Assembly: GCA_029555085.1 (NCBI GenBank)
Contig: JAKPTO010000026.1
Location: 37,217-101,216 of the forward strand
Reading direction: 5' to 3'
Length of the DNA stretch: 64,000 nucleotides
Source: a bacterium
GTDB taxonomy: Bacteria > Patescibacteriota > Patescibacteriia > UBA1558 > S5-K13
Made by a program: the position numbers and the translations under genes. A model generated the notes under the pieces. The model had not been told where the DNA came from, made no database searches, and saw only the letters and a list, made by a program, of their open reading frames with translations. The stretch's first letter is position 1. Each line of letters starts with the position of its first letter. Shown one piece after another: positions 5,679-54,427 of the stretch.

Positions 5679-6341
5679 TTATTTTTGTGATTCTTCTTTT
5701 GTTTCCTCTGGTTCTTTGGTTTTTTCAGTTGTCTCTGGTGTTTCTGATTTTTCTTCTTCTACTGTCTCTGCCTTAGCTGGTTTCGCTATTACTATTGGTT
5801 GGTCTCCGTCAGTTAAAATTTCAACTCCGGACGGAACTTCTAAATCTGAAACTAAAATCATATCATTATAATTTTCAAGTTTAGATATATCTACTTCAAT
5901 TGATGAAATAATTTGACTTGCGAGACATTCAATTTCAATACGATCCATTGCTTTCACAAGAATCGCTCCTAGTTCTTTTACGGCTTTTGATTCGCCTGAA
6001 AAATTAATTGGGATTTCAACTGTCAATTTATTTTTTGCATCAAATCTATACAAATCAGCATGAATTATTGATCCAGTGATATGATCTTTGGCTATATCAT
6101 GTATAATTACTGGGATTTTTTTGTCTTCAAATTCTAAATTTAAAACCTGTGACTCACCCGTGGTATTAAAAATTTTCATAAACTCAGAATAAGAAACCTG
6201 CAAATTTAAATTTTCATGCTTTGGACCATAAACAACAACAGGTAAATACCCAGACGCTATGAGATTTTTCGCGCTTAAGCCACCAAAATTTTCTCTTTTT
6301 TGCGCTTTTAAGATTAATTCTGTCATTTTTTTAGCTTTCAA
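5679..6341 (-). CDS. rplY: 50S ribosomal protein L25 / general stress protein Ctc
   Basis: 220 aa. The N-terminus LKAQKRENFG...GYLPVVVYG is typical of L25/Ctc, and the C-terminal tail is acidic and Lys/Glu-rich. Confidence 0.9.
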   Translation of the reverse strand: MKAKKMTELILKAQKRENFGGLSAKNLIASGYLPVVVYGPKHENLNLQVSYSEFMKIFNTTGESQVLNLEFEDKKIPVIIHDIAKDHITGSIIHADLYRFDAKNKLTVEIPINFSGESKAVKELGAILVKAMDRIEIECLASQIISSIEVDISKLENYNDMILVSDLEVPSGVEILTDGDQPIVIAKPAKAETVEEEKSETPETTEKTKEPEETKEESQK

Positions 6342-6459
6342 GGTTTCGACTTTCAGCTTTCAATTAGCTAAAAACAAAACTCTAACTTAATTATTATAAT
6401 TATCTCATTATAAAACAAGACAAAATTTATGTCAATAATAAATTGTAAGTTAAAAAATT

Positions 6460-21521: not shown

Positions 21522-21912
21522 GGGGATGTATCAATTTGATGCATAAAAAATTTGTTCTTTGGCAAGTCAAGTTTTGCGAAACTTGTAAAAAACGCTAAAT
21601 CATAAATGTCAAATCATTTATAGAAAAAGTTAAAGTTGCATTTAGTAATCCAGCTTTCAACTTTTCAATTGCTTAATCTTTTTTAAAAATTAAGCCATCC
21701 TCTATCTTCATACTCGATGGGGATTTACGAGGGTGTTATATTTTCGAGTTATACTATGGTAATTTCCATGTGCCATAGTGAAAACTTATGGAATATATAA
21801 ATAATATTTTTCTTATTTATAGTTATTTATAGAATTTTAAAAATAAGATAAACTTGTAGATAAAGAATGAATTGTTAGGCAGACAGGGGTTCAAATCCCC
21901 TCATCTCCACCA
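21522..21912 (+). ncRNA. ssrA: tmRNA (SsrA), standard one-piece form
   Basis: The 5' GGGGATG pairs with the 3' CATCTCC-ACCA, including a G3-U70 wobble (alanine identity element). The T-arm GGGGTTCAAATCCCC lies just before the acceptor 3' strand. A candidate tag ORF runs from GCA at 21638 to TAA at 21674-21676. Confidence 0.9.
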
Positions 21913-23195: not shown

Positions 23196-23272
23196 GGAGC
23201 GGTAGTTCAGTTGGTTAGAACGCCTGCCTGTCACGCAGGAGGTCGAGGGTTCGAGTCCCTTCCGTTCCGCCA
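23196..23272 (+). tRNA. tRNA-Asp (GUC), CCA encoded
   Basis: Acceptor GGAGCGG / CCGTTCC, anticodon stem CCTGC / GCAGG with loop CTGTCAC (anticodon GTC), T-arm GAGGGTTCGAGTCCCTT, and 3' GCCA. Confidence 0.93.
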
Positions 23273-23442
23273 GAAAAATCTAAATATATAAAATAAATAC
23301 TCTATCAAATGTAGGGTTTTTATTTTTTACAAAAAGGGACGAGAAGTTTATCCCGCCGTATGGCGGGAAGTCCCTTCCGTTCCGCCAGAAGAATCTAAAT
23401 ATATAAAATAAATACTCTATCAAATGTAGGGTTTTTATTTTT
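23254..23442 (+). repeat. Direct duplication (74 nt, one mismatch, 115-nt period) of the tRNA-Asp 3' end plus 55 nt of downstream flank
   Basis: 23254-23327 matches 23369-23442, with a single mismatch at 23276/23391. The 41-nt spacer contains the hairpin TCCCGCC-GTAT-GGCGGGA (23351-23368). Confidence 0.85.
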
Positions 23443-30154: not shown

Positions 30155-32746
30155 TTATTTACTAAAAACCAGTTTCTTGTCAAAAGAAAATCCGTTTACA
30201 TTTACCCGACAAATATAAACACCGCTTGAGCAAATTTTTCCTGAATCATCTTTTGAATCCCAGTTAATAGTTGCTGATTTGGATTTTGTGGGGACAAACT
30301 TTTTTACAAGTTGTCCTTTGATGTTATAAATCGAAATTTGAACTTCAGATGGTTCTTTTGTGTCTTCTATATCAAACATTAAGCTTACTGTGGAGTTAAA
30401 TGGATTTGGAAATATTTCAAATTTCTTTTTTAATAAATTCACTGTTTGACTTGGTGCGAGTATAAGTGACACATCATCAATCCAAACAGGAACATCTTGT
30501 TCTCCCAAATTCCATGAAATGCGTGCAATTCCAGAACTTGTGGCAGTAAAGCTCATTGTATAATTTTGCCAATCAGTTCCAGTGCTCACAACTTGCCATA
30601 GGCCAAAATTATTCCAGGGAGAATTTTCATTATATAACTCTACCTGGATTTGTCTTTGTGAGGTAGATTTCGCCCAGAAAGACAAAGTATAATTTTGACC
30701 CGATACAATGTTTAAATTCTGGTACAATTGAACCTCGAAGTGCAAACCATTTTGATTGGGATCAATAAATATTGAGTTATTCCCTGAATGGTAAATAGAA
30801 TTATCAATATAATAACTCGCTGTGGAATTGAGATCGCCAACCTCAAATGGTGCAAAATTTCCTGTTTCAAAACCAGGATTTATTATTAAATTATCTCCTT
30901 CTGTTTCCATATCAGATATTTTTTCAAAAACAACATTATCAAAATATTTACAACCAGCTGACTCGCCAATCATAAAATTCAAACGCGCTAATTGATCAGT
31001 TGTATTTGCTATAAAAATATACTGATATTTTTTCCAAGTTGAAGTGAGATTAATCTCTTTCCATAGACCATAATTATTCCATGGATCATTGTTGTTTTGT
31101 ATGCAAAATTTAATTCCCGATGCAGGATTGGATTTTGCCCAAAAAGAAACATTATATGACTCGCCTGATTCAATTTCAACAAGTTGCATAAGTTCTTCTT
31201 CGTAAAATAATCCGGAATCACCAATATTGATTTCTGCTTTAAAGTTTCCATCAACGCAATCACCGGATGTTATATCGAAACTTGCGCTATTTCTACTGTC
31301 ATTTAAAATCCAATAATTACAAATTCCAGAATCAAATCCACCGTCTTCGAAGTCACCACCCTGATAATCAACCATTCCACCACCAGCAAAATATTGAATA
31401 TTTTCTCCGGATTGAAATGAATTAACATCGCTATCGGAAACTTCTAAAACATTAGCAAAATTAAACCCATAGGTATTGAAGGTTGATTCGTCTATAATGA
31501 GACGACGCAATCCATTTTCTATATAATAACAAGCTGGACCTGGACCAGAAATTAATTTTCCATCCATGATTTTTTCATAGCTTACAAATGGCGCAATCTG
31601 ATAATAATTTAAAACATTTTGAGTAACTACTATATTAAAATTTGAATGATAATAGTTAATCATATAAACATTGTCAGAAAGCAATCTCAGAAGAATCTTT
31701 TGTCCAGTGTATGAAGAAGAAACTTCAATCCCTCGTTTAATAACATATCGTTCGTTCATGTTATTTACATTTTGCAATACTGTTCCGTATGGATAATCGC
31801 TTGAAGATGTAAGTTCAGATCCTTCCGCAAATTGAGATAAATATGAACTTGTTGTTGGAATCCAAACATCCGCAGAGTATCCTAATTGTTGCCAATTATT
31901 TACCCTTCGCTTCACAATTGTCGTAGAATTGTTTGACTGATAATCAAATACCCATCTCTGAGAATTCTCATCATAAACACAAGTTCCAACTTTTGGACTA
32001 ATATCAGGACCAATTGAAAATGAATTGAATTCTTCTTGACTAATTTCAACTGCATCAGACCAGTCAAATCCCCAAGTATAAAAAGGTGTCTCACTAGTAA
32101 ATCGTTGCATTTGCCTGTCACGAATCCAATAATAATTTGGAGTATTAGTTACATGAACCAATAAATCATCTGGTAGAATTCTTGGTTGTGAAACAACAAT
32201 GCCTGGGAGTGATGGCGGGTTTGATACGAAATAATGTTTATCTGGATTACAACCATTATTATATTGTTGTGTGTTGTTACTATACCAACCATAGGGATCA
32301 ATTGGTTCATTATTATAGTAAACACCAAAGTGAAGGTGAGGGTTGGTTGAATAACCAGTGTCACCCACCTTTCCTATAAATTGTCCTTGGTAAACAAATT
32401 CTCCGACAGAAACAGTTGCAGTATGGTAAAGCATGTGCGCGTATATTGTTTTGTAACCATTTCCATGGTCTATTTTCACATAATTACCATAATCCGTTCC
32501 TGTTCCATCTGGAATATCTCTTTGCACCGCAATAACCTGTCCACCATAAGCAGAAAGAATTCTTGTTCCCTCTACTGCGGAATAATCAATTCCGTAATTA
32601 TAGTTATAACTATAACTAGGTGGATATTGCCAACCAGATGAAATTATAAAATTTCCTTCAATGGGGAGTGTGAATATATGATCCACACCGAACAAATAAC
32701 CACAACACATTGTGATTATTACTAGAATTGTCATGAGAGTTTTCAT
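30155..32746 (-). CDS. Secreted M23 (LytM) metallopeptidase with two CBM4/9-like carbohydrate-binding modules and a T9SS-type (Por/FlgD-Ig-like) C-terminal sorting domain
   Basis: - Signal peptide: MKTLMTILVIITMCCGYLFG
- M23 motifs: GIDYSAVEGTRILSAYGGQV, KIDHGNGYKTIYAHM, NPHLHFGVY
- Two CBM-like modules: ...YNVSFWAKSNP... and NPGFETGNF...YTLSFWAKST...
- C-terminus: FEIFPNPFNSTVSL...ISIYNIKGQLVKKF...WDSKDDSGKICSSGVYICRV. Confidence 0.8.
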   Translation of the reverse strand: MKTLMTILVIITMCCGYLFGVDHIFTLPIEGNFIISSGWQYPPSYSYNYNYGIDYSAVEGTRILSAYGGQVIAVQRDIPDGTGTDYGNYVKIDHGNGYKTIYAHMLYHTATVSVGEFVYQGQFIGKVGDTGYSTNPHLHFGVYYNNEPIDPYGWYSNNTQQYNNGCNPDKHYFVSNPPSLPGIVVSQPRILPDDLLVHVTNTPNYYWIRDRQMQRFTSETPFYTWGFDWSDAVEISQEEFNSFSIGPDISPKVGTCVYDENSQRWVFDYQSNNSTTIVKRRVNNWQQLGYSADVWIPTTSSYLSQFAEGSELTSSSDYPYGTVLQNVNNMNERYVIKRGIEVSSSYTGQKILLRLLSDNVYMINYYHSNFNIVVTQNVLNYYQIAPFVSYEKIMDGKLISGPGPACYYIENGLRRLIIDESTFNTYGFNFANVLEVSDSDVNSFQSGENIQYFAGGGMVDYQGGDFEDGGFDSGICNYWILNDSRNSASFDITSGDCVDGNFKAEINIGDSGLFYEEELMQLVEIESGESYNVSFWAKSNPASGIKFCIQNNNDPWNNYGLWKEINLTSTWKKYQYIFIANTTDQLARLNFMIGESAGCKYFDNVVFEKISDMETEGDNLIINPGFETGNFAPFEVGDLNSTASYYIDNSIYHSGNNSIFIDPNQNGLHFEVQLYQNLNIVSGQNYTLSFWAKSTSQRQIQVELYNENSPWNNFGLWQVVSTGTDWQNYTMSFTATSSGIARISWNLGEQDVPVWIDDVSLILAPSQTVNLLKKKFEIFPNPFNSTVSLMFDIEDTKEPSEVQISIYNIKGQLVKKFVPTKSKSATINWDSKDDSGKICSSGVYICRVNVNGFSFDKKLVFSK

Positions 32747-32934: not shown

Positions 32935-33480
32935 CTACTTATTTATTAAAAAATCTTTAAATATACCCAAACTACCCACTCTAAATAAACCTATATTTTC
33001 TACTGTTTCGCAACCAACCATCACTGGGGCATATTCGTCTCTACATGTGCTAGCTCTACAATTATCACCTGCATATTTATACTCTACAAACATATTTTGC
33101 TTTATTAGTTGCTCTGTTAATGCAAACGGGAAAACACTACTAACAGAATAAATACCTCTTGGAACCTCTAATCTGTAACCTTTTTTATTTCTATATTTAG
33201 AATTAATTACTTGATTAGGTGTGCAATAATAATTATTTGTTTCTATATTTTTCGCGCAAACCAAAGATCCATCTGGAACAATTTCTGATGGATAGCTTAA
33301 TTCTCCCTCAATTGCCCCCATACAATTTTCTGATTGTATTTTTGTTGCTTCTCTTTCATCTGAAATACTCTGTGTATTGTTTATAATATTTTCTTGATTT
33401 TTACTATCATAAATTACAATATATATAACAAGTGATATAAATAGTATTATTGAAATAATTATTAATATTTTTTTCCACAT
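32935..33480 (-). CDS. Hypothetical membrane-anchored / secreted Cys-containing protein
   Basis: 181 aa with an N-terminal TM helix (ILIIISIILFISLVIYIVIY) and an extracytoplasmic domain with several Cys residues. Confidence 0.5.
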   Translation of the reverse strand: MWKKILIIISIILFISLVIYIVIYDSKNQENIINNTQSISDEREATKIQSENCMGAIEGELSYPSEIVPDGSLVCAKNIETNNYYCTPNQVINSKYRNKKGYRLEVPRGIYSVSSVFPFALTEQLIKQNMFVEYKYAGDNCRASTCRDEYAPVMVGCETVENIGLFRVGSLGIFKDFLINK

Positions 33481-33575: not shown

Positions 33576-33608
33576 AAAAAAAGGCGTCGTATTACTACGA
33601 CGCCTTTT
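33576..33608 (-). terminator. Rho-independent terminator downstream of the 1707-aa gene
   Basis: Perfect stem AAAAGGCGTCGTA / TACGACGCCTTTT with loop TTAC. A T-run follows on the minus strand. Confidence 0.85.
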
Positions 33609-33634: not shown

Positions 33635-36600
33635 TTATTTTTTATATAAAGTGGAAACAAATCTTTGCATTCTGTCATTCAATACATCTAAAGCAATTCT
33701 TGTACTTTCTGGTGCGTTTTTTGGTATGCTCTTTAATGTGAGTTCCCAAAATTTTATCTCAAAATTATTTAACTTACTACTACCTGTTCTTTCCAGCTTT
33801 ATATCGCTTAATAATTTAAATGCTTTATCGTGTACAATGTCTTTATTAGCACTCTCCGTAATTATTCTATATAATTCAGTACCTCGTTCTCGGCTATAAA
33901 AAAATGTTCCAACTGAACTAACATCTGATGTCTGTTTAATAATGGAACCATTTTCATCAAATACTTGTTTAAGTGTTCCGCTTCTTCCCGCCTCCTTAAA
34001 AGTAACGAGCTTTGTATAATCATCGAGCCATTTCTCTGTTATTGTTCCTGTATTTGTTTTTATAATTTCTATATTTGGCTCGGAAATCAATTCTTGAAAA
34101 TTATTCTCTGTAATTTGCTCTAAGCCGGGACTTTGTGGATCAAGATCTGCATAATATTCCCCATGGTCTTTTTGAATTTCCAACACCCGATTATTACCAA
34201 CATTCGTTTCAAATTTAACTGGAATATTGTCTTCAACATCTTTCAATGCCTCTTCCAACTCAGAAAATGTATTAACTCTTTTAACTCCTAGTATCTCTGT
34301 TTGATTTTGAGCTATAGGCACACGATCTAATATATCTTCGACAGGTGTCCGTCCTGATATACCTTTGGTAGGCACATGATCTGGCTCAATAGTCAAATTT
34401 TGAACTGAGGATACTTGGTCTGATATATCTTCTATATTTGACTCAGAAATCAATTCTTGAAAATTATTCTCTGTAATTTGCTCTAAACCAGGGAGATTAG
34501 GATTAAAGTCTGTGTAATATTCTCCATTGTCCTCTATAATCCGTACAACATTACCACCAATTTCTACATCAGCCGAAGCACCTGCCTCTTTAAACTGAAA
34601 TACTTCTTTCAAATCAGAAAAATCCCTAACCACTGGAACCTCTGATGTTTCTATAGGTACATTAGTCAATGTATCTGGGGTGACTTCTATACTTTCTGTA
34701 GGTACATGATCTAACATATCTTCAGTGGGTACATGATCTGGTTTAATAACTGGGATTTCTGTATTACCATTATTAAACTCATCTTGCAACCTCGCTATTT
34801 GAAAATTTAACTCCTCTCCAGTATTTTGCTGTTGTGAAAGTAATTCTCGAGTTGCATTTAGTTCCTCAGATATCTTCGCTTGTATATTGGATGGAATATT
34901 TGGATCATCTAGCATTTCTTCTAATCTGGTAATTGATAATTTTGACTTTATTATATCATCATTTAACTCAAAATATTTACTTTGTAGCTCTTCTATTTGC
35001 TCAGGATAATTTGACTTAACTATATCTTCTACGGGTAGCACTTCTCTTACATTTGTTGGTCTGACAATTTCTGAAACATTAGGACCATGTTTGGGCTTAA
35101 TGACGCCCATTACATTATCTACATAATGTTTGTAAAAACTTTCATAAGACTTGGGTTTGACAAAGGCAAAAACCTCGTTAGTTTCTGGATCAACGACAAC
35201 TCTTGCTCCCGGCGCAACAACATTTGCATCAAAATTTTTAAGAATCAATGGTTCGCCATTAGGTCCAGAAGTAACAAGTGTCATTTTTGAACCACGAGGC
35301 ATGCTTATACCCAAAGTTTCAGAAACACTAGAGCCCTTAGCTACTGGAACGCCTTGATCTGCCAACTCTTGAATACGTTGAGGGTTCAAACCCTTAATAT
35401 CTTGAAAATTAGATACATCTGATTTTTTTGGAGAAAAACTTTGTGATGCCTCATTTATATCATCCGCTCGACTTGTTGAGATAACCTGATCTTTTTTACC
35501 AAAAACAGAGTTCTTCAAATTCTCAAAAGACTTTCCTAATCTCTCCATTCTTGAAACTATATCAGCATAACTTACAAAATTATCTTTCATGTTTTCCAAT
35601 ACATTACCCTGAGTAAATGTTTTGGTAAAACATTGTACCATGTTATCCACACTTGCACCAGATGTTTGTATTCCTGATAAAGCTTGCGTTCCCATACCAA
35701 GAGCCATTAATAATTCCCCCCAAGCTCTCATCATGGTAGTTTTTTTATCAAAACCTTTTAATTTTCTAACATCACTATGTTTTTTTAATTTATCATTTTC
35801 TACATAAAAACTTGATTCATATCGTTTTCCAGATAATCCATAATATGTTTCTAAAAACATTGTTTTAAATGCATCTCCAAGATATTGATGTGCTTTCATT
35901 TTTTCGCCAACCTTATTCCAGGAATATTCCTTTTGATATTTCAATGCTGATTTATCTAATTTTCCACCAAATGCAAATATTCCATACATAGCACCTCGAA
36001 GTCCAGCCGCACCTATCCCGCCACCAAAAACCATAGCCGTATTAAGTGCATCTTTTACAAGTATACTTCCATTTACTGTTCCTTGTATATAATCTTGCAA
36101 AATATAATCTATTTTTTTTGACCTTTGTTTTCTTAAATCATTTTTTGATTCCAAATTCGTAAGTAGAACTTTGTTTAATCTATTTCTCATTGTCATCTGA
36201 TCATGATCAGAAATAATATACAATAACTTTTCTTTATCTGTTAATGAACCTTCGTTAAACTTTTTTTCTATTTCTTGTCTTTTTTCTTTTGGTAAATCAT
36301 AATAATTCTGAGATCTGGCATTCTTTATCATTTCATTATATTGCATTGCTTTTTCTTTTACATCATCTACAGAAATTTTTTCATTTTTTATAAAATTTTC
36401 TCTAATTTTATTATTCTCCATTGAAAGAGTTTTTATTTTACGCTCTAATTCTTCTCTTTCTGTTTCATCTTTTGTGTTTTTATATATCTCTACATATCTA
36501 GATATTGCAGCAACTCTTCTTTTGTAATTATCATCTTGGTAAAGCTTCTGAAATTTTTCCTTATTAGAAGAAATCAACTCTGCTAAATCGCTTGTTTTCT

Positions 36601-38758
36601 TTTCTGCCTCAACCCTATCTTTCTTTGTTTCACTTTTTTGATCAAAATATTTATACACATCTGTTCTCTTGCCAAGAGCAAAATTAATTTTTCCTCCACT
36701 TATTTTATCAAGTCCATGCGCAAGTCCAGCGCCAATCCAATCACCAATGGCTTTAACACCAAACATTGAACCGATAATATTATATATTCCCTTACCTGTT
36801 GCTGCGCATAAGGCCCTCTTTTCTTCTTTTTCTTCTGGTGTTTTTGGTTTCTTAAAAATCAAATCAAAAGTTTTCTTAACCCTATCCTTAAATTTAACTT
36901 TTATCTGTTCTTCTTTTAACTCTTCATTGATAATATGTTCTTCCGGCGTATTAGATTGAATTTCTTTTTCTGATTCAAAATTATTGTAAGTAGATGTCCA
37001 TTTTATTTCTTGTCCCCATTCTGGACTGGTATGGGTAGATGTCCATTTTGCTTCCTGTCTCTCTCCTTGACTCGTATTAGTTTCCCATTGTTGTTCTTGA
37101 TTAGTATTAGATATTGTCTCTGGTTTTATTTCTTTTATTCCAAGTACATTGCTTATATATGTATTTGTATTTTCAAGAAGACTTGGTGCTATTTTTGTCA
37201 CAAAATTTACAATAAAAGACTCATTACCCTCCCTACCCTCATCTTCTACTCTATCCTTAGCTTCTAAAAATTTTCTTACCTCAATAATCTGATTATCGCT
37301 TAGTCTACTCAACTTGTACTTTAAAATATCAACTCCGGTATTTTCTAATTCTAAATGTTTATTAAAAAATTTTTCCTCTGTTTTCGGCAAATCGTCTTCA
37401 AAGACTTGTTTTTCTTTAATAACCTCCTCTTCTGATTTTTCAAAATTCTCTGATTTTGAAGTCTCTTCTTTTTCTGATTTAATCTTTTCTTCTGAATTTC
37501 CTAACAACTCTTTAACTTTATCTCTTAAACCGTATGCTCTAGTAACGAAATTAATATGATAGCTTTCGTGTCTCACTTGATCAATTATCTGCTTCAATTC
37601 CTCTGGACTATATTTTTCTTTGGTACCATCTATTGTCCCAATTTCTTCTATGGCAGAAAATAATTCCTCAAAATTTTTAGCATTGCTAATTTTTGCTTTT
37701 TGATTTTCTAGTAACTCTACAACCTTATCTCTTAAACCGTATGTTCTAGTAACATAAGTATTGCGAAGATCTCCATTCCTTACTTGGTTAATGATCTGCT
37801 TCAATTCCTCTGGACTATATTTTTCTTTGGTACCATCTATTGTCCCAATTTCTTCTATGGCAGAAAATAATTCCTCAAAATTTTTAGCATTGCTAATTTT
37901 TGCTTTCCTATCTTCTTCTGTTTCTATTGTATTTTTTTTATTTTTCCCCTCAATTTCTTTTTTAGATTCACTTTCTCTCATCATTTCAATGAGTTTTTTT
38001 GCATGCATTTTAGCCCATTGAATTTGTCCTTCATTATTTTCATAATCTAAACCTGCTTCTGGGTTAGGATGATTATCTTTTTCCCTATTTTCTATATCAT
38101 GTTGTTTCCAACTCATAAGAATTTTATACGCAATAGCTGTTTCTAAATCATTTGTAGTATCTCTATACATGTCATAATGTTTGTAATAATCATTAAAAAT
38201 GCCTTTATAATCTATACCCGTTTCCATATCTGGATTTTCAAAAAAATTCTTATACACTTTTTCAACTTCAGATTCCATATATTTATAATCTTCTGGATTG
38301 TCTGGTAATTCTGTTTTTATAACTCTCTCTGGAACCTGATCTAAAACATTGAGATCTTTTTCTGATTCAAATTTTTCATCTATTTTTTCTTGTCCATCTT
38401 CGGGGATTTCTTTCGCATACTCGTCTGATGCTGATATAATTTCTTTTGCCCTTTTTATTCTCTTATTAATCTCAGGGACTAATTTTCTTAAATCTTCTAA
38501 ATAATTAAAAAAAAGAGAACGATCTTCATCAAATGTTTCTTGGTCACTCGATATAAGTATATATTGATCTGCACTAAATGATATATCCGACCTAATTTCT
38601 TCGAGTAATTCTTCACCCCTATTTAATATTTTCTCTAAAGCTTGTTTCTTAAATCTTATGAATCCATCTGGGTTATTATTATCTATAAATTCTCTGTATT
38701 GCTCATTCTTATCAACTAAATTTTTTAAATTCTCTGTAGGTTGTTTTATTTTATCCAT
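33635..38758 (-). CDS. Giant (1707 aa) orphan protein: acidic coiled-coil-rich N-terminal third, internal Gly-rich hydrophobic segments, and duplicated modules
   Basis: A single uninterrupted ORF with no signal peptide. Hydrophobic Gly-rich segments include ALCAATGKGIYNIIGSMFGVKAIGDWIGAGLAHGL and NTAMVFGGGIGAAGLRGAMYGIFAFGG. The 69-aa module KAKISNAKNFEELFSAIEEIGTIDGTKEKYSPEELKQII is duplicated, as is a ~121-aa-period module containing PGLEQITENNFQELISE. Confidence 0.8.
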   Translation of the reverse strand: MDKIKQPTENLKNLVDKNEQYREFIDNNNPDGFIRFKKQALEKILNRGEELLEEIRSDISFSADQYILISSDQETFDEDRSLFFNYLEDLRKLVPEINKRIKRAKEIISASDEYAKEIPEDGQEKIDEKFESEKDLNVLDQVPERVIKTELPDNPEDYKYMESEVEKVYKNFFENPDMETGIDYKGIFNDYYKHYDMYRDTTNDLETAIAYKILMSWKQHDIENREKDNHPNPEAGLDYENNEGQIQWAKMHAKKLIEMMRESESKKEIEGKNKKNTIETEEDRKAKISNAKNFEELFSAIEEIGTIDGTKEKYSPEELKQIINQVRNGDLRNTYVTRTYGLRDKVVELLENQKAKISNAKNFEELFSAIEEIGTIDGTKEKYSPEELKQIIDQVRHESYHINFVTRAYGLRDKVKELLGNSEEKIKSEKEETSKSENFEKSEEEVIKEKQVFEDDLPKTEEKFFNKHLELENTGVDILKYKLSRLSDNQIIEVRKFLEAKDRVEDEGREGNESFIVNFVTKIAPSLLENTNTYISNVLGIKEIKPETISNTNQEQQWETNTSQGERQEAKWTSTHTSPEWGQEIKWTSTYNNFESEKEIQSNTPEEHIINEELKEEQIKVKFKDRVKKTFDLIFKKPKTPEEKEEKRALCAATGKGIYNIIGSMFGVKAIGDWIGAGLAHGLDKISGGKINFALGKRTDVYKYFDQKSETKKDRVEAEKKTSDLAELISSNKEKFQKLYQDDNYKRRVAAISRYVEIYKNTKDETEREELERKIKTLSMENNKIRENFIKNEKISVDDVKEKAMQYNEMIKNARSQNYYDLPKEKRQEIEKKFNEGSLTDKEKLLYIISDHDQMTMRNRLNKVLLTNLESKNDLRKQRSKKIDYILQDYIQGTVNGSILVKDALNTAMVFGGGIGAAGLRGAMYGIFAFGGKLDKSALKYQKEYSWNKVGEKMKAHQYLGDAFKTMFLETYYGLSGKRYESSFYVENDKLKKHSDVRKLKGFDKKTTMMRAWGELLMALGMGTQALSGIQTSGASVDNMVQCFTKTFTQGNVLENMKDNFVSYADIVSRMERLGKSFENLKNSVFGKKDQVISTSRADDINEASQSFSPKKSDVSNFQDIKGLNPQRIQELADQGVPVAKGSSVSETLGISMPRGSKMTLVTSGPNGEPLILKNFDANVVAPGARVVVDPETNEVFAFVKPKSYESFYKHYVDNVMGVIKPKHGPNVSEIVRPTNVREVLPVEDIVKSNYPEQIEELQSKYFELNDDIIKSKLSITRLEEMLDDPNIPSNIQAKISEELNATRELLSQQQNTGEELNFQIARLQDEFNNGNTEIPVIKPDHVPTEDMLDHVPTESIEVTPDTLTNVPIETSEVPVVRDFSDLKEVFQFKEAGASADVEIGGNVVRIIEDNGEYYTDFNPNLPGLEQITENNFQELISESNIEDISDQVSSVQNLTIEPDHVPTKGISGRTPVEDILDRVPIAQNQTEILGVKRVNTFSELEEALKDVEDNIPVKFETNVGNNRVLEIQKDHGEYYADLDPQSPGLEQITENNFQELISEPNIEIIKTNTGTITEKWLDDYTKLVTFKEAGRSGTLKQVFDENGSIIKQTSDVSSVGTFFYSRERGTELYRIITESANKDIVHDKAFKLLSDIKLERTGSSKLNNFEIKFWELTLKSIPKNAPESTRIALDVLNDRMQRFVSTLYKK
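37587..37906 (-). repeat. Intragenic direct repeat: 113 nt perfectly identical, 207-nt period
   Basis: 37587-37699 is identical to 37794-37906 by base-by-base comparison. The flanks are diverged but related (CTTATCTCTTAAACCGTATG...). Confidence 0.9.
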
Positions 38759-38775
38759 ATTTTTGTAATTAAATT

Positions 38776-38964
38776 TTATTTATTTAAAAATTTCTTTCTA
38801 ATATTTTCTAATTTTTTCTGAGTCATCAATGTTTCTATTTTTTTTACAATATCGTTTCTTTTTTTTGAAATAATAGATAATTCCGCCATTATAATATTTA
38901 ATTCTTTATCAACTTCCTCTATAAGATCCTTATAATTCTTTATTTTTGTTTTTATTTCTTCCAT
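38776..38964 (-). CDS. Small coiled-coil protein (hypothetical)
   Basis: 62 aa, heptad-like and Lys/Glu-rich, immediately upstream of the 1707-aa gene. Confidence 0.4.
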   Translation of the reverse strand: MEEIKTKIKNYKDLIEEVDKELNIIMAELSIISKKRNDIVKKIETLMTQKKLENIRKKFLNK

Positions 38965-38974
38965 GTATTTATAT

Positions 38975-39292
38975 TTATTTTTTACTCCTTTTAAAAATAG
39001 AATCTAGTTCTGTTATTGTTTTTTCATCAATTTTTTTCTCTTTCTCGGCATATTCAATTGCCAATTGTTCTAATTTATTTTCCAATTCAATATTTAATAA
39101 GTCTAATTGCTCAGATGCAAATTTATTCTCAAGCGTCATTGCTACTTCTGCTACCTTTTCCGGAGGGAGATTATTTAATATCTCTATAAATAATTCCTTT
39201 GCATCATCGGATATATTCATAGAAGCTAACAAAAAACCCAGCTTTTTACCAAAACCGCCTATCAATTCTTGGTCATTTATTTTTTTGCTCAT
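38975..39292 (-). CDS. Hypothetical small acidic helical protein
   Basis: 105 aa with no TM helix and no recognisable motif. Confidence 0.45.
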   Translation of the reverse strand: MSKKINDQELIGGFGKKLGFLLASMNISDDAKELFIEILNNLPPEKVAEVAMTLENKFASEQLDLLNIELENKLEQLAIEYAEKEKKIDEKTITELDSIFKRSKK

Positions 39293-39296
39293 ATTG

Positions 39297-40073
39297 TTAT
39301 TTTAATAATAAATTATACAATTTTTTATATTTTTTGTCAATAAATAAAAAATAACTCGCAAATAATATAAAAATTAAAGCCATTATTTGCGGAAATCTAA
39401 TTCCGAAAATATGAAGTGTTGTATCAATTCTTAAAAATTCCATAAAAAACCTAATAATTCCATAACCAAAAACATACAACAAAAATATTCTTCCTTCTTT
39501 GTAATGTCTCTTAAATACTCTCATTAGTATAAAAAATAAAATTAAATTTAAAATAAATTCATATGCAAATATGGGATGATGATGAAACCCTGTTTTTTGT
39601 ATATATATTGCCCATGGCACATTTGAAACTTTTCCATACAATTCTGAGTTAAAAAAATTACCCCATCTCCCAATTGCTTGCCCAAGTGGAACAACAAGAG
39701 CAAAAATATCTAAATATTTTAGCGAATTCAATTTATGCTTTTTACAATAAAAATAAACAGTTAATATTCCAGCTATTATTGCTCCTTGAATTGCTATACC
39801 GCCACGCCAAATTCTAAAAATCTCCCAAAAATTATACTTATAATATTTAAAATCGAAAAACAATACTGAGTAAATTCTAGCCCCAATTATTCCAAAAATT
39901 ATAATATAAAAATATAAATTTTCTAAATGATTTTTATCAATTTCACTGCCCCTGGATAATCTTTCTATTAAATACATACACAATAAAATACCAAAAACTA
40001 CTATAATTCCGTAAAAATATACATTGATTAACCCAAGGCGCAGTAATATTGGATGTGGATTTGCATTTATCAT
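39297..40073 (-). CDS. lgt: Prolipoprotein diacylglyceryl transferase
   Basis: 258 aa, polytopic, with the Lgt signature GRWGNFFNSELYG. Confidence 0.9.
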   Translation of the reverse strand: MINANPHPILLRLGLINVYFYGIIVVFGILLCMYLIERLSRGSEIDKNHLENLYFYIIIFGIIGARIYSVLFFDFKYYKYNFWEIFRIWRGGIAIQGAIIAGILTVYFYCKKHKLNSLKYLDIFALVVPLGQAIGRWGNFFNSELYGKVSNVPWAIYIQKTGFHHHPIFAYEFILNLILFFILMRVFKRHYKEGRIFLLYVFGYGIIRFFMEFLRIDTTLHIFGIRFPQIMALIFILFASYFLFIDKKYKKLYNLLLK

Positions 40074-50339: not shown

Positions 50340-51554
50340 TTATTGATAATATTTATTTCTATTATAGTTAAATTCAAAAGATTTATTAAAATCAGATACT
50401 AATGATGGAATATTTGAAACCATAATTGACTCATCGTTTCTAAAAAATCCCCCAGAACTCCAATTATTTGTTCCAAAAAGAGCTATTTTATCATCAAAAA
50501 TCATTAGATGATGGTGTAAAAAAGAATTTAAATTTTGTTCATTAAATATTTGTTTTAATTCTTTATTTCTATTTTCATCAGTCAAAATTTCTAAATTATC
50601 TAAATGATTTTGCTTTTTCTTTTTTATCATAAAATTAAATACGGAACCATCTACTGAAAAATTATAATCATCTGTTAAAATTTTTACACTAATCTTTTTT
50701 GATGCTAATAATAAATCTTCTGCAATATCTCTATCTGTCATAAGCCAAATCATGGATTTTATGTTGTCCTTTGAATTCTCAATCAGATTCAACATTCTAT
50801 CCTTGATACCAGTATTTATTCTTTGTGGAGTAAACCAAATTTCTAAAAATCCTTCTGGATATTTTATAAGAGCAGCGAATGGATTATATTCTTTTGATAA
50901 TTTATCTCTTCCGCGTAAACCAGAAAATATTCTATCAAATTCCTCTCCATATATTTCAATAATTTCTGGCCTGTCAGTTTCTAAAATAAAACTCGGATCA
51001 TATTTATCTTGAATATAAGTAAAATTATAAGAACTAAAGAGTAATTTCTGGGTCTCCTCGCCTCTATCAATTATTATAAATTTATGATGCATGTATTCTG
51101 ATTTTTGAGTATTAATGTTCCTAGACAAAATATCTTTTCTTGTAATATTATCTCGCTTTTCTGAAAACAATCTATTATTTATATCTCTATGCACATCACT
51201 AAAAACTAATTTTATATTCACTCCTCTGTCTGATGCTTTATAAATTGCATCTCTTATCCTTTCGTCGTTCATAGAATAAATAGCCACTTCAATGGTTTTT
51301 TGTGCAGAATTTATAGAATCAATAACAATTTTTGACAAAATGTTTTGTCCAAATTCATCATTAAAATGTAAACTCCCTGAAAATGGTTCTGTGATTTCTA
51401 TGATTTTCGCAGGCCTAAATTCTACTATTCTTCTCTTCGAAAAAGATGTAAAAAATAAGTATATAAAAATTCCCATTGTAATTAATAAAAGAATTGGAAT
51501 TGCCCAAAAAATAAATGTCTTATGTGATTTTTCTAATTTCATCACCCAGCTCAT
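50340..51554 (-). CDS. Membrane-anchored phospholipase D-family protein (two PLD repeats, the second with a variant HKD motif). Third gene of the RT operon.
   Basis: 404 aa with a TM helix (FIFWAIPILLLITMGIFIYLFF). The first motif is canonical: HHKFIIID...FSSYN. The second is HHHLMIFDDKIALFGTNNWS, with Lys replaced by His at the x-K position. It overlaps the upstream gene by 35 nt, or 23 nt if M5 is the start. Confidence 0.75.
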   Translation of the reverse strand: MSWVMKLEKSHKTFIFWAIPILLLITMGIFIYLFFTSFSKRRIVEFRPAKIIEITEPFSGSLHFNDEFGQNILSKIVIDSINSAQKTIEVAIYSMNDERIRDAIYKASDRGVNIKLVFSDVHRDINNRLFSEKRDNITRKDILSRNINTQKSEYMHHKFIIIDRGEETQKLLFSSYNFTYIQDKYDPSFILETDRPEIIEIYGEEFDRIFSGLRGRDKLSKEYNPFAALIKYPEGFLEIWFTPQRINTGIKDRMLNLIENSKDNIKSMIWLMTDRDIAEDLLLASKKISVKILTDDYNFSVDGSVFNFMIKKKKQNHLDNLEILTDENRNKELKQIFNEQNLNSFLHHHLMIFDDKIALFGTNNWSSGGFFRNDESIMVSNIPSLVSDFNKSFEFNYNRNKYYQ

Positions 51555-53235
51555 ATTTTTGCTGATAAGTTAAATAATTATTATTTTCTTTTGAAAATAC
51601 TATAATAATAGAATCTTCAAGTTTTTCACTTAATATTTCTATTATTTTTATAATATCATTATAATTCAAATCAATCCAAATATTGTCAATAATAATAAGT
51701 TGTTTTTTATTAACTATGCAATGGAGCGCTTGAAGAGCAAAGCATGAAACATTATTATTAAAAGCCAACACACAAGAAGAATTAACATTATTTATAGAAG
51801 ATATTTTTGATGCAATAAATTGATTTTCAGATATTACCTTGATCACATTTTCAATTTCAGAAGAATTAATTTGTTCTTTATCTTTCCCTAAAATAAACTC
51901 CATCAAACTTTTTTCTGAAAATATTTTAGGATCGAAAAAATATGCGCCACAGAATAATTTTTGCCATATTGGATAATCATATCTTTTATTGTCTATTTTC
52001 ACCTTCATTGCCTTGGGATTATAAATACGCATTCCTGCAAAAATTTTAGCCAAACTTGTTTTTCCTGAAAAATTCTCTCCAAAAAATAAAATTCTTTCTG
52101 ATTTTTTAAAATGAAAATCTAGATTTCTGAAATATTTACCATCTTTAAATAATTTTGTTTTTTTTGCGTGAAACAATATTTCATTATGAATTTTTAAAGT
52201 ATTTTTTCTACGCAAAACTGCTCCTTTTTGCAATACTGTTAAAAACAAACCCAATCTTGCTGGAAAAAAATATAAACCAACTCTTAGCGCTTGATTAAGT
52301 GTTCTTGGAAAATAGAACATTAAAAATAAAAATAAAAATCTATTATCTCTACCAAGTAAATTTATAAAAGAAAAAAACTCATTTGTAAAAAAATTGCTTA
52401 AAATTACAATTATCAAAACTATCACAAATACAATTTTTGCGCTTATTCCAATCCAAAGATTTCTTCTAATGCGAAAAAAAGAATCTATATTAACAAGACG
52501 ATCAAACTTTTGTAGCACACTATCTTCATTATTAAAATTTTTATTAAAATATTTTTCTGATAAGCTAATATCGATATGTTTTATTATTTGTGAATAAAAA
52601 GTGACTTCTTGCGAAATATATTTTTTTGCAACATAATAAGCTATTATTCCTATAAGAATAGAAAGTGCCACGAAAAAAACGAAAACAATAAATAAATTTA
52701 ATCCTATTAAATATGCAATGAGCATTGCCACAGAAAAATATATGAACCATCTAATTATTCCAAAAAAAACAATTGATACACCCATTGAAACAAGCGATAA
52801 TTGATAAGAAATTTTTGCTATTAACCTACCCTGCCTTTCGTTGTTCATTGTTTCAACGGGTCTATCAATAAATGATTTAAATATTCTGCGCCTAATATCA
52901 TTTGCAAATAATACCACAATAGTTTTTTCTTGTTTTATAGAAAAAAATGAACTTATGATAAACAACAATATAAAAATAGCAAAAAATTGCCAAAAAAATG
53001 GGTCTAAAATACTATTTAGCTGAGATAATTTATTTCTACTAAATACAATAAGAAACGCTTCTATTACACAGGAAACAAAAATTAAAAGAACAAGACGCAA
53101 AATATAAAATTTATATTTTTTAAAAAAATCTCGTAAATACCCGTAATGTAAAAACGATAATTTTATATCTTTGTATTTATTCCTTGTTTTTCTAATTTCT
53201 TTTATTAATCTAATTTGTTCTTTTATTTCTTTCAT
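51520..53235 (-). CDS. ABC-exporter-like protein (type I 6-TM domain fused to a degenerate nucleotide-binding domain). Second gene of the RT operon.
   Basis: 571 aa. The TMD resembles ABC exporters (ANDIRRRIFKSFIDRPVETMNNERQGRLIAKISYQL). In the NBD, Walker A is retained (GENFSGKTS). The LSGGQ signature is replaced (NNVSCFALQALHCI). Walker B is LIIIDNIW (catalytic Glu replaced by Asn). There is no H-loop His. It overlaps the RT gene by 26 nt. Confidence 0.7.
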   Translation of the reverse strand: MKEIKEQIRLIKEIRKTRNKYKDIKLSFLHYGYLRDFFKKYKFYILRLVLLIFVSCVIEAFLIVFSRNKLSQLNSILDPFFWQFFAIFILLFIISSFFSIKQEKTIVVLFANDIRRRIFKSFIDRPVETMNNERQGRLIAKISYQLSLVSMGVSIVFFGIIRWFIYFSVAMLIAYLIGLNLFIVFVFFVALSILIGIIAYYVAKKYISQEVTFYSQIIKHIDISLSEKYFNKNFNNEDSVLQKFDRLVNIDSFFRIRRNLWIGISAKIVFVIVLIIVILSNFFTNEFFSFINLLGRDNRFLFLFLMFYFPRTLNQALRVGLYFFPARLGLFLTVLQKGAVLRRKNTLKIHNEILFHAKKTKLFKDGKYFRNLDFHFKKSERILFFGENFSGKTSLAKIFAGMRIYNPKAMKVKIDNKRYDYPIWQKLFCGAYFFDPKIFSEKSLMEFILGKDKEQINSSEIENVIKVISENQFIASKISSINNVNSSCVLAFNNNVSCFALQALHCIVNKKQLIIIDNIWIDLNYNDIIKIIEILSEKLEDSIIIVFSKENNNYLTYQQKYELGDEIRKIT

Positions 53236-54427
53236 AATGAAAGTCTAAATAAAAATTATATAATGATTTTATTTTTAAATATTCTATCTCTTTTCTTAAC
53301 AACCTTCTGTTGCGTGGTGAATATTTACCAAATATAAAATCTGTTAAAATACGGAAAAAATCTTCTGATAATTTTTTTATTTGTTCTGAGTTATTGATTT
53401 GTGGTTTATCTTTTATAATTTTTTGAAATTGGTAGTTAAAATTTTTTTCTGGATGTCCCATAATCCTTCTCAGTAAATACTTTTTTTTACTTAAATTATA
53501 ATTTTTATATTTTAAAATACTTTTCCAACCAGCAATAATACGCTTAATATATGATTTTTCTAAACTAATAATTCCTGAATTAAAGCAGTAGCCTAAAAAA
53601 GAAAAATTTTCTTTTGCATCACCAATAAATAATTTGCTATTATTTATTGTTAAATTTCTAATATTCAAATCTTTGATAATTTCTAATTTTAATTTATTTA
53701 GCTTGTCTATGTTATTATCAAAAATACCTATATCATCTCCTATTCTTATATAAAATGAACATTGTTTTTGATATTTATGATCAAGGTCTGTTAAATATAA
53801 ATTATTAAAAAGTGCTATTAGTGGAACACCCTGGACAAGACCTATATCAGGTGCTTCTATCTTACCATTTTTATATATTTTATTAAAAATAAATAATTTT
53901 AATAAATCTAATATTTTTCTATCTTCAAAAATGTTTTCCAGTTGTGAGTATAAAACATTCTTATCAATCAAGTCAGAATAGTTTTCCAAATCTAACACTA
54001 ATGCTTTGTCTGTAGAAAAATTTTTCCTATATCTATGGCAAAAATTTTTTGCTGCAAAATATGGTGGCTTGCCCGGCCTATATGAAAACAATCTTTTTGA
54101 AAAAACTTTTTCAAATTCTGGTAATAAAACTCTATAAATTGCCTGTGCTTTTATACGATCTTTTATATTATAAATAAAAATATCCCTGAATTTCTCGGGA
54201 TTATTTTTTTTAGGAATTGAAACAATAAGTGCTGGCTCAATTTCCCTATTTTCAACTAATTCTTTTTGACAAATATCTATAAGCTCCTTTGAATTTAAAT
54301 CTCTGTCTTGTATTGAAATATTATCCAAACCGTGATATCTAAAACTTTTACTATCTATAGAAAATTTTTCCACTATATCTAAATAAGCAGATCGAATATT
54401 ATCATAAGATACAATTTTATTAAACAT
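53210..54427 (-). CDS. Stand-alone reverse transcriptase, with no endonuclease or recognisable maturase extension
   Basis: 405 aa with RT motifs in order:
- SIPKKNNPEKFRDIFIYNIKDRIKAQAIYRVL (motifs 1-2)
- SYRPGKPPYFAAKNF (motif 2a/3 region)
- LVLDLENYSDLID (motif A)
- GLVQGVPLIALFNNLYLTDLD (motif B)
- FYIRIGDDIGIF (YxDD-type motif C)
- LTINNSKLFI...FSFLGYCF (motifs 6-7)
A ~110-aa helical tail follows. Confidence 0.85.
   Translation of the reverse strand: MFNKIVSYDNIRSAYLDIVEKFSIDSKSFRYHGLDNISIQDRDLNSKELIDICQKELVENREIEPALIVSIPKKNNPEKFRDIFIYNIKDRIKAQAIYRVLLPEFEKVFSKRLFSYRPGKPPYFAAKNFCHRYRKNFSTDKALVLDLENYSDLIDKNVLYSQLENIFEDRKILDLLKLFIFNKIYKNGKIEAPDIGLVQGVPLIALFNNLYLTDLDHKYQKQCSFYIRIGDDIGIFDNNIDKLNKLKLEIIKDLNIRNLTINNSKLFIGDAKENFSFLGYCFNSGIISLEKSYIKRIIAGWKSILKYKNYNLSKKKYLLRRIMGHPEKNFNYQFQKIIKDKPQINNSEQIKKLSEDFFRILTDFIFGKYSPRNRRLLRKEIEYLKIKSLYNFYLDFHYERNKRTN

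Follow-up and report, generated by a model that had tools for sequence, protein, structure and literature searches.

Large clostridial toxins and MARTX toxins combine variable N-terminal functional cassettes, a central helical region of marginal hydrophobicity and C-terminal repeated binding modules. Effectors of the type III secretion system (T3SS) and of its type IV counterpart (T4SS) that bear transmembrane domains (TMDs) show sub-threshold hydrophobicity, and chaperones bind their transmembrane (TM) segments (PMC6110835). For the relaxase-less T4SS of Patescibacteria, co-option for other functions has been suggested (PMC12102498), and among the members of the HopA1 family (PF17914) are a T3SS effector as well as the phospho-Ser/Thr lyases known as LanY (PMC9486802). 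Very little is known about how the Patescibacteria, or Candidate Phyla Radiation (CPR), attach to, sense and manipulate their hosts, and their genomes are rich in large unannotated genes. Here we describe one such gene, which encodes a protein of 1707 amino acids (aa), hereafter the giant, in a 64-kb stretch of the patescibacterial contig JAKPTO010000026.1, hereafter the window. We tentatively favor a reading, to which we give somewhat less than an even chance, in which the giant is a resident membrane-associated protein with its N-terminus inside, its C-terminal ~670 aa exposed as a variable binding array, and its core partnered by the small protein sp105 encoded upstream.

A small protein family at a fixed locus

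An earlier note on this DNA, made from the letters alone, had presented the giant as an orphan. The open reading frame (ORF) was confirmed, and no model of Pfam, NCBIfam, PHROGs or PADLOC matched its product; the gene is real and unannotatable. The seven sequences of its conserved core gave no match in the same libraries either, and sequence profiles of five conserved elements (A1, A3, A6, A7 and A8) found only chance-level matches in the PDB; clear homology to a characterized family was thus absent from all these collections. The word orphan has to be given up, as an exhaustive HMMER scan of 1.84 billion representative proteins with aa 1000-1707 as the query (E<=1e-3) returned 11 proteins, all of them large (404 to 2142 aa). 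The giant's family is very small and CPR-specific, and it is always found at one locus. To judge from these searches, no described family includes the giant, and all five profiled elements represent undescribed domains.

The common order, ligA-gatC-gatA-dsbA(-lgt) followed by one or more small ORFs and the giant, was found in 8/8 loci (the window, L001, L005, L018, L019/L020, L021, L022 and L023), the eight on which all counts of synteny and co-variation given here rest. In the closest genomes, the flanking genes are 62-86% identical, and the giant can be aligned in parts only, at 41-44%.

Family members differ in their middle region, which exists in two types. Type A is present in the window protein, P0046, P0047 (from GCA_019248445.1) and P0050-P0053, and type B in P0002, P0003, P0048 and P0049. 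The ~590-aa type-A core of the window protein aligns end to end with its six counterparts at 31-48% identity and holds a set of invariant residues, namely (in core numbering) K40/D44, K273-D274..N277-T278-A279 and R292. The sequence common to both core types starts directly after the last Gly-rich segment. A first, full-length indexed search had yielded four non-self relatives and missed six type-A relatives recovered by the exhaustive scan. The three genomes nearest by LigA (81-82%) carry type B, and type A is found in genomes whose LigA is merely 43-44% identical. From this distribution we therefore conclude that type A is ancestral and vertically inherited, and that the sister clade replaced it.

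An ORF of the sp105 family stands immediately before the giant and after ligA-gatC-gatA-dsbA in the window, L018, L019/L020, L021 and L022; the family is present at 5/5 type-A loci and at 0/3 type-B loci. As the presence of sp105 co-varies with the core type, this is the strongest hint that sp105 may be a physical partner of the type-A core. The second small protein, sp62, is conserved in the six closer loci, and in the two distant ones its C-terminal motif KL.N[IL]RK.[FL] appears to have been joined onto the tail of the sp105 homologue. Neither a signal peptide nor a TM segment was found in sp105, and neither small protein had a match in Pfam, PHROGs, NCBIfam or PADLOC; no known chaperone family was matched.

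The ends of the protein are far less constant than its locus. Distant members have almost no N-terminal extension (P0050, P0051 and P0053 are minimal), so that the first ~630 aa of the window protein are a lineage-specific accretion. Among three proteins with a common N-terminus, a 69-aa module with the signature ITRTYGLR occurs in 2, 1 and 0 copies, and in P0002 the place of the second module is taken by a HopA1 (PF17914) domain (aa 510-623; E 1.8e-11; score 44.7 bits, gathering cut-off 22.7). The window protein gave no match to PF17914 and is not a member of that family. C-terminal modules, too, are duplicated and shuffled among family members. Taken together, the alignments show that the N-terminal region and the distal part of the C-terminal one are swapped between members like cassettes and reshaped by tandem duplication with probable gene conversion, of which the exact 113-nt repeat described below is one product.

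Domains of the giant and its possible relation to the membrane

By sequence, the giant is a mosaic of an N-terminal domain, duplicated modules, a helical core, an alpha/beta block, a coiled coil and beta modules (Table 1). The earlier note had seen an acidic, coiled-coil-rich stretch in the first ~640 aa and a C-terminal half without any recognizable motif. The acidity holds (net charge -39 over aa 1-640), but the region is no featureless coiled coil, as it contains two recurrent CPR domains. Likewise, the C-terminal half indeed lacks a library match, but it contains an alpha/beta block and a predicted coiled coil as well as the two beta modules.

Table 1. Positions of the giant gene, its predicted elements and its transcription unit in the window
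Feature	Position	Strand	Description
Giant ORF	33635..38758	-	1707 aa, ATG start, intact frame
sp62	38776..38964	-	62-aa basic coiled-coil protein, second gene of the unit
sp105	38975..39292	-	105-aa acidic helical protein, first gene of the unit
Promoter	39312..39340	-	perfect sigma-70 consensus TTGACA-17-TATAAT, score 12/12
Intrinsic terminator	33579..33608	-	13-bp stem, 6 GC pairs, 4-nt loop, T tract
QIQWAKMHA domain	37952..38344	-	aa 139-269; alignments with other Patescibacteria proteins
ITRTYGLRxKV module, copy 1	37712..37918	-	69 aa, aa 281-349; holds exact-repeat copy 37794-37906
ITRTYGLRxKV module, copy 2	37505..37711	-	69 aa, aa 350-418; holds exact-repeat copy 37587-37699
Type-A core	35084..36871	-	aa 630-1225
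Gly-zipper segment 1	36710..36814	-	aa 649-683; invariant K and D inside, basic downstream flank
Gly-zipper segment 2	35963..36070	-	aa 897-932; invariant K-D..N-T-A and R
Gly/Ala-rich segment 3	35651..35725	-	aa 1012-1036; candidate N-in/C-out crossing
Alpha/beta block	35114..35410	-	aa 1117-1215, motif KGSSVSETL...KMTL.T...G.P; both core types, 11/11 members
Antiparallel coiled-coil hairpin (predicted)	34769..35008	-	aa ~1251-1330; pLDDT 69-90
Beta module, copy 1	34439..34621	-	aa 1380-1440, motif V.IGG..V.v.kdG.EYY.D....GLE.IT
Beta module, copy 2	34076..34267	-	aa 1498-1561; 363 nt from copy 1

Relatives of the QIQWAKMHA domain come from metagenome-assembled genomes of Patescibacteria, including Komeilibacteria and Sungiibacteriota. 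In L008-L011 the domain is the C-terminal tail of single-pass membrane proteins of 560-750 aa that have a signal peptide and an ectodomain, and it is preceded by a TM helix with the stop-transfer sequence RRRR/KKKK; this placement indicates that it is cytoplasmic in those proteins. It also exists as a stand-alone protein of 174 aa. An indexed search with the QIQWAKMHA profile returned 3 short proteins only, thus indicating that the word index misses most relatives. The ectodomains of L008-L011 carry the motif '(I/V)TGF(A/S)SPEG...EN..LA..RA' (e.g., L008 596-2830), which by eye recalls OmpA-like peptidoglycan-binding domains and has no Pfam match; L008 has a further segment of ~60 aa in common with the giant, at the giant's aa ~487-545.

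The ITRTYGLR module, with the signature F.EL..(x)..G.I.GS..YS.eeL...I..Vr.G....ITRTyGLR.KV.ELL, is present in four copies in P0004 and in one copy each in P0002 and P0005. In addition, 37 stand-alone proteins of 63-130 aa consist of it, one copy being annotated from Falkowbacteria. None of the 13 stand-alone proteins retrieved has an obvious N-terminal signal sequence, and the genomic context of the stand-alone genes shows no consistent neighborhood. A Falkowbacteria copy (P0023) lies directly upstream of a 972-aa surface protein with LTD/PKD domains. A subfamily (P0029, P0032 and P0036; L026 5001-5288) has an extra insert, 'SF(Y/N)GKSD.(Y/F)G'; one of these copies is found on a 405-kb contig together with many small unannotated genes and those for ClpP, NT5C and a nucleoside deoxyribosyltransferase, a gene content that looks phage-like and possibly belongs to a huge phage. 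P0004 (L003 8001-11093; 1030 aa, on a 1.3-Mb contig) has its four modules in tandem, followed by a C-terminal domain of ~340 aa without a Pfam match; a 106-aa ORF stands immediately before its gene, and the genomic context is unlike the giant's locus.

AlphaFold2 (AF2) models were built for aa 630-1230 of the core (7 sequences) and for aa 1100-1707 (3 sequences), with a mean predicted local distance difference test score (pLDDT) of 49.7 and 51.5, respectively; the alignments are shallow, and the models inform on secondary structure only. The type-A core, with its three Gly-zipper-type segments, is mostly helical at low confidence. Only helical hairpins, the alpha/beta block (~60-79 in both models) and the beta modules reach a pLDDT of ~60-90, and the coiled-coil hairpin is the best-predicted part of the C-terminal model (helices 152-184 and 191-231 of model m1be74de2adae). 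The beta modules also occur in P0002, P0003, P0047 and P0049, and for the last ~140 aa of the giant no counterpart could be defined.

Under the arrangement that we favor, the acidic N-terminal ~640 aa, with the QIQWAKMHA domain and the two ITRTYGLR modules, would remain cytoplasmic and bind partners there. Gly-zipper segments 1 and 2 would form hairpins, either interfacial or re-entrant, with cytoplasmic coiled coils on their flanks, which sp105 may bind or stabilize, and the last Gly/Ala-rich segment would cross the membrane from N-in to C-out. The C-terminal ~670 aa would then lie outside as a variable wall-binding or host-binding array made of the alpha/beta block, a coiled-coil stalk, Pro/Thr/acidic linkers and the duplicated beta modules, such that the giant would couple an intracellular partner to the cell surface of the episymbiont. 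A cytoplasmic N-terminus is suggested by the lack of a signal peptide, in agreement with the earlier note and evident from the hydrophilic N-terminus, together with the otherwise cytoplasmic settings of the N-terminal domains. An exposed and fast-changing C-terminus is suggested by the giant's divergence above that of the flanking genes, its shuffled modules and the envelope-protein neighbors downstream. As to the crossing itself, the 20 aa upstream of segment 3 contain 5-8 K+R and the 20 aa downstream 1-2 in 7/7 type-A members, and the last segment of type-B members has the same charge asymmetry in 3/4 cases (that of P0003 was not captured). According to the positive-inside rule, this asymmetry fits an N-in/C-out crossing. 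Segments 1 and 2 have basic downstream flanks, as expected of a cytoplasm-to-cytoplasm hairpin, and the type-B orthologues possess a segment with a Hessa-type insertion free energy (dG) of +1.4 to +2.9, near that of a TM control at +2.9.

Several observations weigh against this reading. The Gly-rich hydrophobic segments announced by the earlier note are present, but they are not classical TM helices: their 19-residue Kyte-Doolittle mean is ~1.1-1.2 (maximum 1.22), and their lowest summed dG is +6.0, compared to -6.2 for the signal anchor of the neighboring protein p181 and +2.9 for the TM helix of L010, a control that is TM by context. The dG sum is a crude scale, and the topology case as a whole rests on crude scales and charge counts; no segment of the giant reaches the classical values (Kyte-Doolittle mean > ~1.6, or dG near or below 0-3). 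Some charged or polar residues within the segments (K, D, N, T and R) are invariant, and the AF2 pLDDT of the segments is below 50. The C-terminal region has neither Cys pairs nor a recognizable extracellular domain, and Foldseek found nothing significant in the PDB for the C-terminal model (best E 0.08, TM-score <= 0.13). Furthermore, synteny in compact CPR genomes is weak functional evidence, and a delivered effector would account for the HopA1 lyase-like domain of P0002, which lies in the part presumed to be cytoplasmic, better than a resident tether does.

The last point leads to the main, though somewhat unlikely, alternative, namely that the giant is secreted with the help of chaperones and, as an effector or translocator, inserts into membranes. 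An effector or toxin had also been suggested, as speculation, by the earlier note. Here, sp105 and sp62 would be cytoplasmic chaperones masking the marginally hydrophobic Gly-zipper segments, the whole protein would be exported by a non-Sec route such as the relaxase-less T4SS, the core would enter the host membrane carrying the N-terminal cassettes as cargo, and the C-terminal modules would bind. The absence of a signal peptide agrees with this, as does the segment hydrophobicity, which at a lowest dG of +6.0 on the crude scale lies below the insertion threshold just as described for TMD effectors. So do the small helical ORFs directly upstream in one operon, of which sp105 co-varies with the core type, the HopA1 domain of the positional orthologue P0002, the wide occurrence of the relaxase-less T4SS in Patescibacteria, and the termini, which are swapped as cassettes and replaced wholesale between lineages. 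However, the window contains no VirB4/VirD4 or T3SS genes, only those for type IV pilins and a prepilin peptidase, and no chaperone family was matched by either sp105 or sp62. Unlike typical accessory effectors, the core is ancient, present in a single copy and fixed at one locus; in other CPR genomes, the QIQWAKMHA domain and the ITRTYGLR module are found in resident cytoplasmic settings; and the minimal members P0050, P0051 and P0053 are almost devoid of any N-terminal 'cargo'. A more specific version, that sp105, sp62 and the giant make up a chaperone-assisted, self-inserting delivery protein of episymbiotic CPR with an AB-toxin-like architecture acting between bacteria, we regard as improbable. 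In that version, the Gly-zipper core may be a conduit or anchor in the host membrane and the C-terminal beta modules may bind the host surface, while the swappable N-terminal cassettes may act inside the host (QIQWAKMHA and ITRTYGLR here, a HopA1-type phospho-lyase in the sister lineage).

The weak hydrophobicity can also be read in the opposite sense, namely that the giant, with no part outside, is a scaffold confined to the cytoplasm or the membrane periphery and serves a structural purpose, for instance in cell shape, division or the anchoring of the pilus machinery. The Gly-rich segments would then be GxxxG helix-packing elements or amphipathic membrane-binding helices of a coiled-coil protein. 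We consider this unlikely, even though no segment passes the TM threshold, invariant charged residues sit within the Gly-rich segments, the protein is mostly helical or coiled coil with 2 Cys in its 1707 aa, the gene is ancient, vertically inherited and single-copy, and every identifiable domain has cytoplasmic relatives. Replacement and duplication of terminal modules and a divergence well above that of the flanking genes would be unusual for a housekeeping scaffold. Moreover, the charge asymmetry at the last segment is consistent in both core types, the type-B orthologues have a plausibly inserting segment, and the C-terminal Pro/Thr/acidic linkers resemble extracellular spacers.

Transcription unit, chromosomal setting and integrity of the gene

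The earlier note had given 33635-38964 as the extent of the gene. The 1707-aa ORF within it is real, but the upper end takes in sp62, a separate ORF. The two small helical ORFs that the note had placed upstream are both there, with 105 and 62 codons' worth of product, and the strong terminator it had seen at the giant's end was found as a GC-containing stem followed by a T tract. Delimited by a consensus promoter before it and this terminator behind it, sp105-sp62-giant appears to be a self-contained three-gene transcription unit. The promoter lies 19 nt upstream of the sp105 start codon, within the 3′ end of lgt. Perfect TTGACA-17-TATAAT sites number 2 in 64 kb vs. 0.05 expected, and 0/100 shuffles reached 2; the other one is at 6407-6435 (-), upstream of the ORF 5679-6341. 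The equivalent promoter position scores 10-12/12 in 6/7 related loci. The terminator begins 27 nt past the giant's stop codon, and a GC-rich hairpin with a T tract follows the giant gene in 6/7 related loci as well (L001, L005, L018, L021, L022 and L023).

The window has ~28% GC, and the giant shares its strand with ordinary chromosomal genes. Upstream of its unit are those for type IV pilins, a prepilin peptidase, LigA, GatC, GatA, a DsbA-like protein and Lgt; downstream are those for p181, an M23 peptidase, a DD-carboxypeptidase and MacB-type transporters. The p181 protein (181 aa, 32935-33480 (-)) is Cys-rich and membrane-anchored at its N-terminus, gave no match in Pfam, NCBIfam, PADLOC or PHROGs, and is kept in the closer loci. 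The same holds for the presence of the 863-aa M23 peptidase (30155-32746 (-)), which has two CBM4_9 domains and a C-terminal Por_Secre_tail; a sorting domain of this type, that of the type IX secretion system, is unusual for a member of the CPR.

With two small ORFs ahead of a very long coiled-coil protein that has Gly-rich hydrophobic segments, and with an M23 peptidase encoded downstream, the locus bears a superficial likeness to a phage tail tape-measure gene with its two assembly chaperones, or to another mobile-element gene in a prophage. This explanation is highly improbable. The PHROG matches of the M23 peptidase to tape-measure families come from its M23 domain only, whereas the giant and the seven core sequences have no PHROG or Pfam match, and tblastn found no match to the giant in 50,697 phage records. 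The flanks (LigA, GatCA, DsbA, Lgt, DD-carboxypeptidase and MacB) are no tail-gene module, and all eight loci share their order; synteny at the locus extends to genomes with a LigA of only 43% identity, and no capsid, terminase or integrase genes are nearby. A phage tail module was thus ruled out by chromosomal context, the lack of PHROG matches and the phage tblastn, and a plasmid or conjugative origin was rejected as tblastn gave no match in 72,556 plasmids. The housekeeping flanks together with the lack of tblastn matches in phages and plasmids allow us to conclude that the giant's region is part of the chromosome of a low-GC patescibacterium, not of a mobile element.

The repeats in the gene raised the question of its integrity. 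The 113-nt perfect duplication reported by the earlier note was confirmed: the two copies (Table 1) are identical over 113 nt and over not one further base on either side. They sit within a 207-nt (69-aa) tandem duplication, and all of the 30 mismatches between the 207-nt units fall outside the exact run (P~5e-11 under a uniform spread); in the diverged part, 11/15 codon differences are non-synonymous. This distribution speaks for partial homogenization through gene conversion, or for a partial duplication of very recent date, and against a single old duplication, in agreement with what the note had supposed. The second module pair it had placed about 363 nt apart is real too (34061-34177 vs. 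34424-34540, offset 363 nt, 80% identity) and corresponds to the two ~60-aa beta modules. As a further candidate, a target of a diversity-generating retroelement was rejected: the reverse transcriptase (RT) gene is 15 kb off, and the window-wide direct-repeat scan revealed no pair of template and variable repeats and no RT-proximal sequence tied to the giant, whose repeats are intragenic, with one of them exact.

Short-read assemblers can be misled by exact repeats, so an assembly chimera, or a decaying pseudogene, had to be considered instead of a functional gene. Some observations fit this. The orthologue P0003 (1479 aa), in the region L005 8001-13092, appears to be split, its C-terminus being left as a separate ORF of 180 aa (L005 12550-13092) homologous to the extreme C-terminus of P0002, which points to a frameshift, a premature stop or a sequencing error, and on one contig the gene of the window protein is in three frame-shifted pieces (P0057-P0059). 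Nevertheless, an uninterrupted ORF of 5.1 kb at 28% GC is very unlikely by chance, the core is kept over deep divergence, and promoter and terminator are conserved. The same product of 1707 aa with a single residue different (P0055) is encoded on 18 contigs (up to 192 kb) and has 3 NCBI protein accessions (HNZ86101.1, HOG37959.1 and HQI03018.1). Fragments on other contigs and assemblies span both repeat copies in register, and the repeat units consist of unique sequence in their diverged halves, as does the junction between them. Since independent assemblies give the same 1707-aa protein, an assembly artefact, including the concatenation at the repeats envisaged by the earlier note, is excluded, and the chimera or pseudogene reading as a whole is hardly credible.

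Some other features of the window deserve mention. A second giant ORF (14813-20356 (-); 1847 aa) has no Pfam match and is unrelated in sequence to the 1707-aa giant. Its N-terminus is helix-turn-helix-like, and its C-terminus is acidic, repetitive and rich in Thr/Glu; it further contains a hydrophobic segment, a G-x-y run of collagen type (aa ~372-400; weak NCBIfam Scl match) and repeats of 'GNVGIGTT.P' that resemble tail fibres. Its DNA contains repeats at 17713-17829 vs. 18391-18507 (87%) and a tandem 114-nt pair at 14852-15079 (89%). The RT gene (53210-54427 (-)) matches RVT_1, is group-II-intron-like at a score far below the NCBIfam cut-off, and matched the PADLOC models for RT and for defense-associated RTs (DRT; UG26 and UG17). 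Its neighbors encode an ATP-binding cassette (ABC)-type protein (51520-53235) and a phospholipase D (PLD)/DrmC-like nuclease (50340-51554 (-)), and the three genes (50340-54427) could form a defense-associated RT cluster. A tmRNA gene is located at 21522-21912 (+). A tRNA-Asp gene (23196-23272 (+)) is followed by a 74-nt direct repeat of 99% identity (23254-23327 and 23369-23442), which begins with the tRNA 3′ end and looks like an att-site-type duplication or an integration scar.

Significance and comparison with known systems

In this work, we delimited a three-gene operon with promoter and terminator and a small putative partner that tracks one of two cores. The case also yields five domain families without a description in any database, of which two are widespread in CPR either as free-standing proteins or as cytoplasmic tails of membrane proteins, and a fixed chromosomal locus where the ends of a protein get swapped and duplicated. 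If the core crosses the membrane of the cell or inserts into that of the host, the giant would be a lineage-specific part of the episymbiont-host interface. If it is not a membrane device, there still are two new widespread CPR domains and an example of probable gene conversion inside a coding repeat.

The phage tape-measure proteins with their gpG/gpGT-type chaperones resemble the locus in having two small ORFs before a long helical protein with Gly-rich segments and a peptidoglycan hydrolase nearby, but the giant shows no homology to them, has no phage genes around it, lies in housekeeping synteny, and its two small ORFs lack the frameshift arrangement. With AB-type toxins (large clostridial toxins and MARTX), the giant shares the order of parts and the absence of a signal peptide, a likeness of architecture only. 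It differs from them in having no homologous domain and in lacking both a protease and a glucosyltransferase domain, and N-terminal cassettes are missing from the minimal members of its family. As to the HopA1/LanY family (PF17914), its domain is found in the orthologue P0002, at the region of the window protein's second module, and the window protein itself is without it.

The TMD effectors and translocators of T3SS and T4SS with their chaperones (e.g., SseF/SscB; PMC6110835) are closer. Like the giant, they lack a signal peptide and have segments just below the targeting threshold; small helical proteins are encoded upstream in the operon of a large coiled-coil-rich protein, and an orthologue of the giant carries an effector-family domain, HopA1. 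Unlike them, the giant has no T3SS or T4SS genes in its 64-kb surroundings, bears no similarity in sequence or fold to any effector, translocator or chaperone family, and is an ancient, locus-fixed, single-copy core gene, and it would have a bacterial or archaeal host instead of a eukaryotic one. The giant modular surface proteins of CPR and other episymbionts are alike in size, missing annotation, internal repeats, fast-evolving ends, envelope and pilus neighbors and a reduced genome. In contrast to those, the giant has no N-terminal signal peptide or anchor, and it possesses a conserved core, a fixed locus, co-varying partners and N-terminal domains of a cytoplasmic type. By analogy, then, the giant would in function most resemble either the modular giant surface proteins of episymbionts or the TMD effectors with chaperones.

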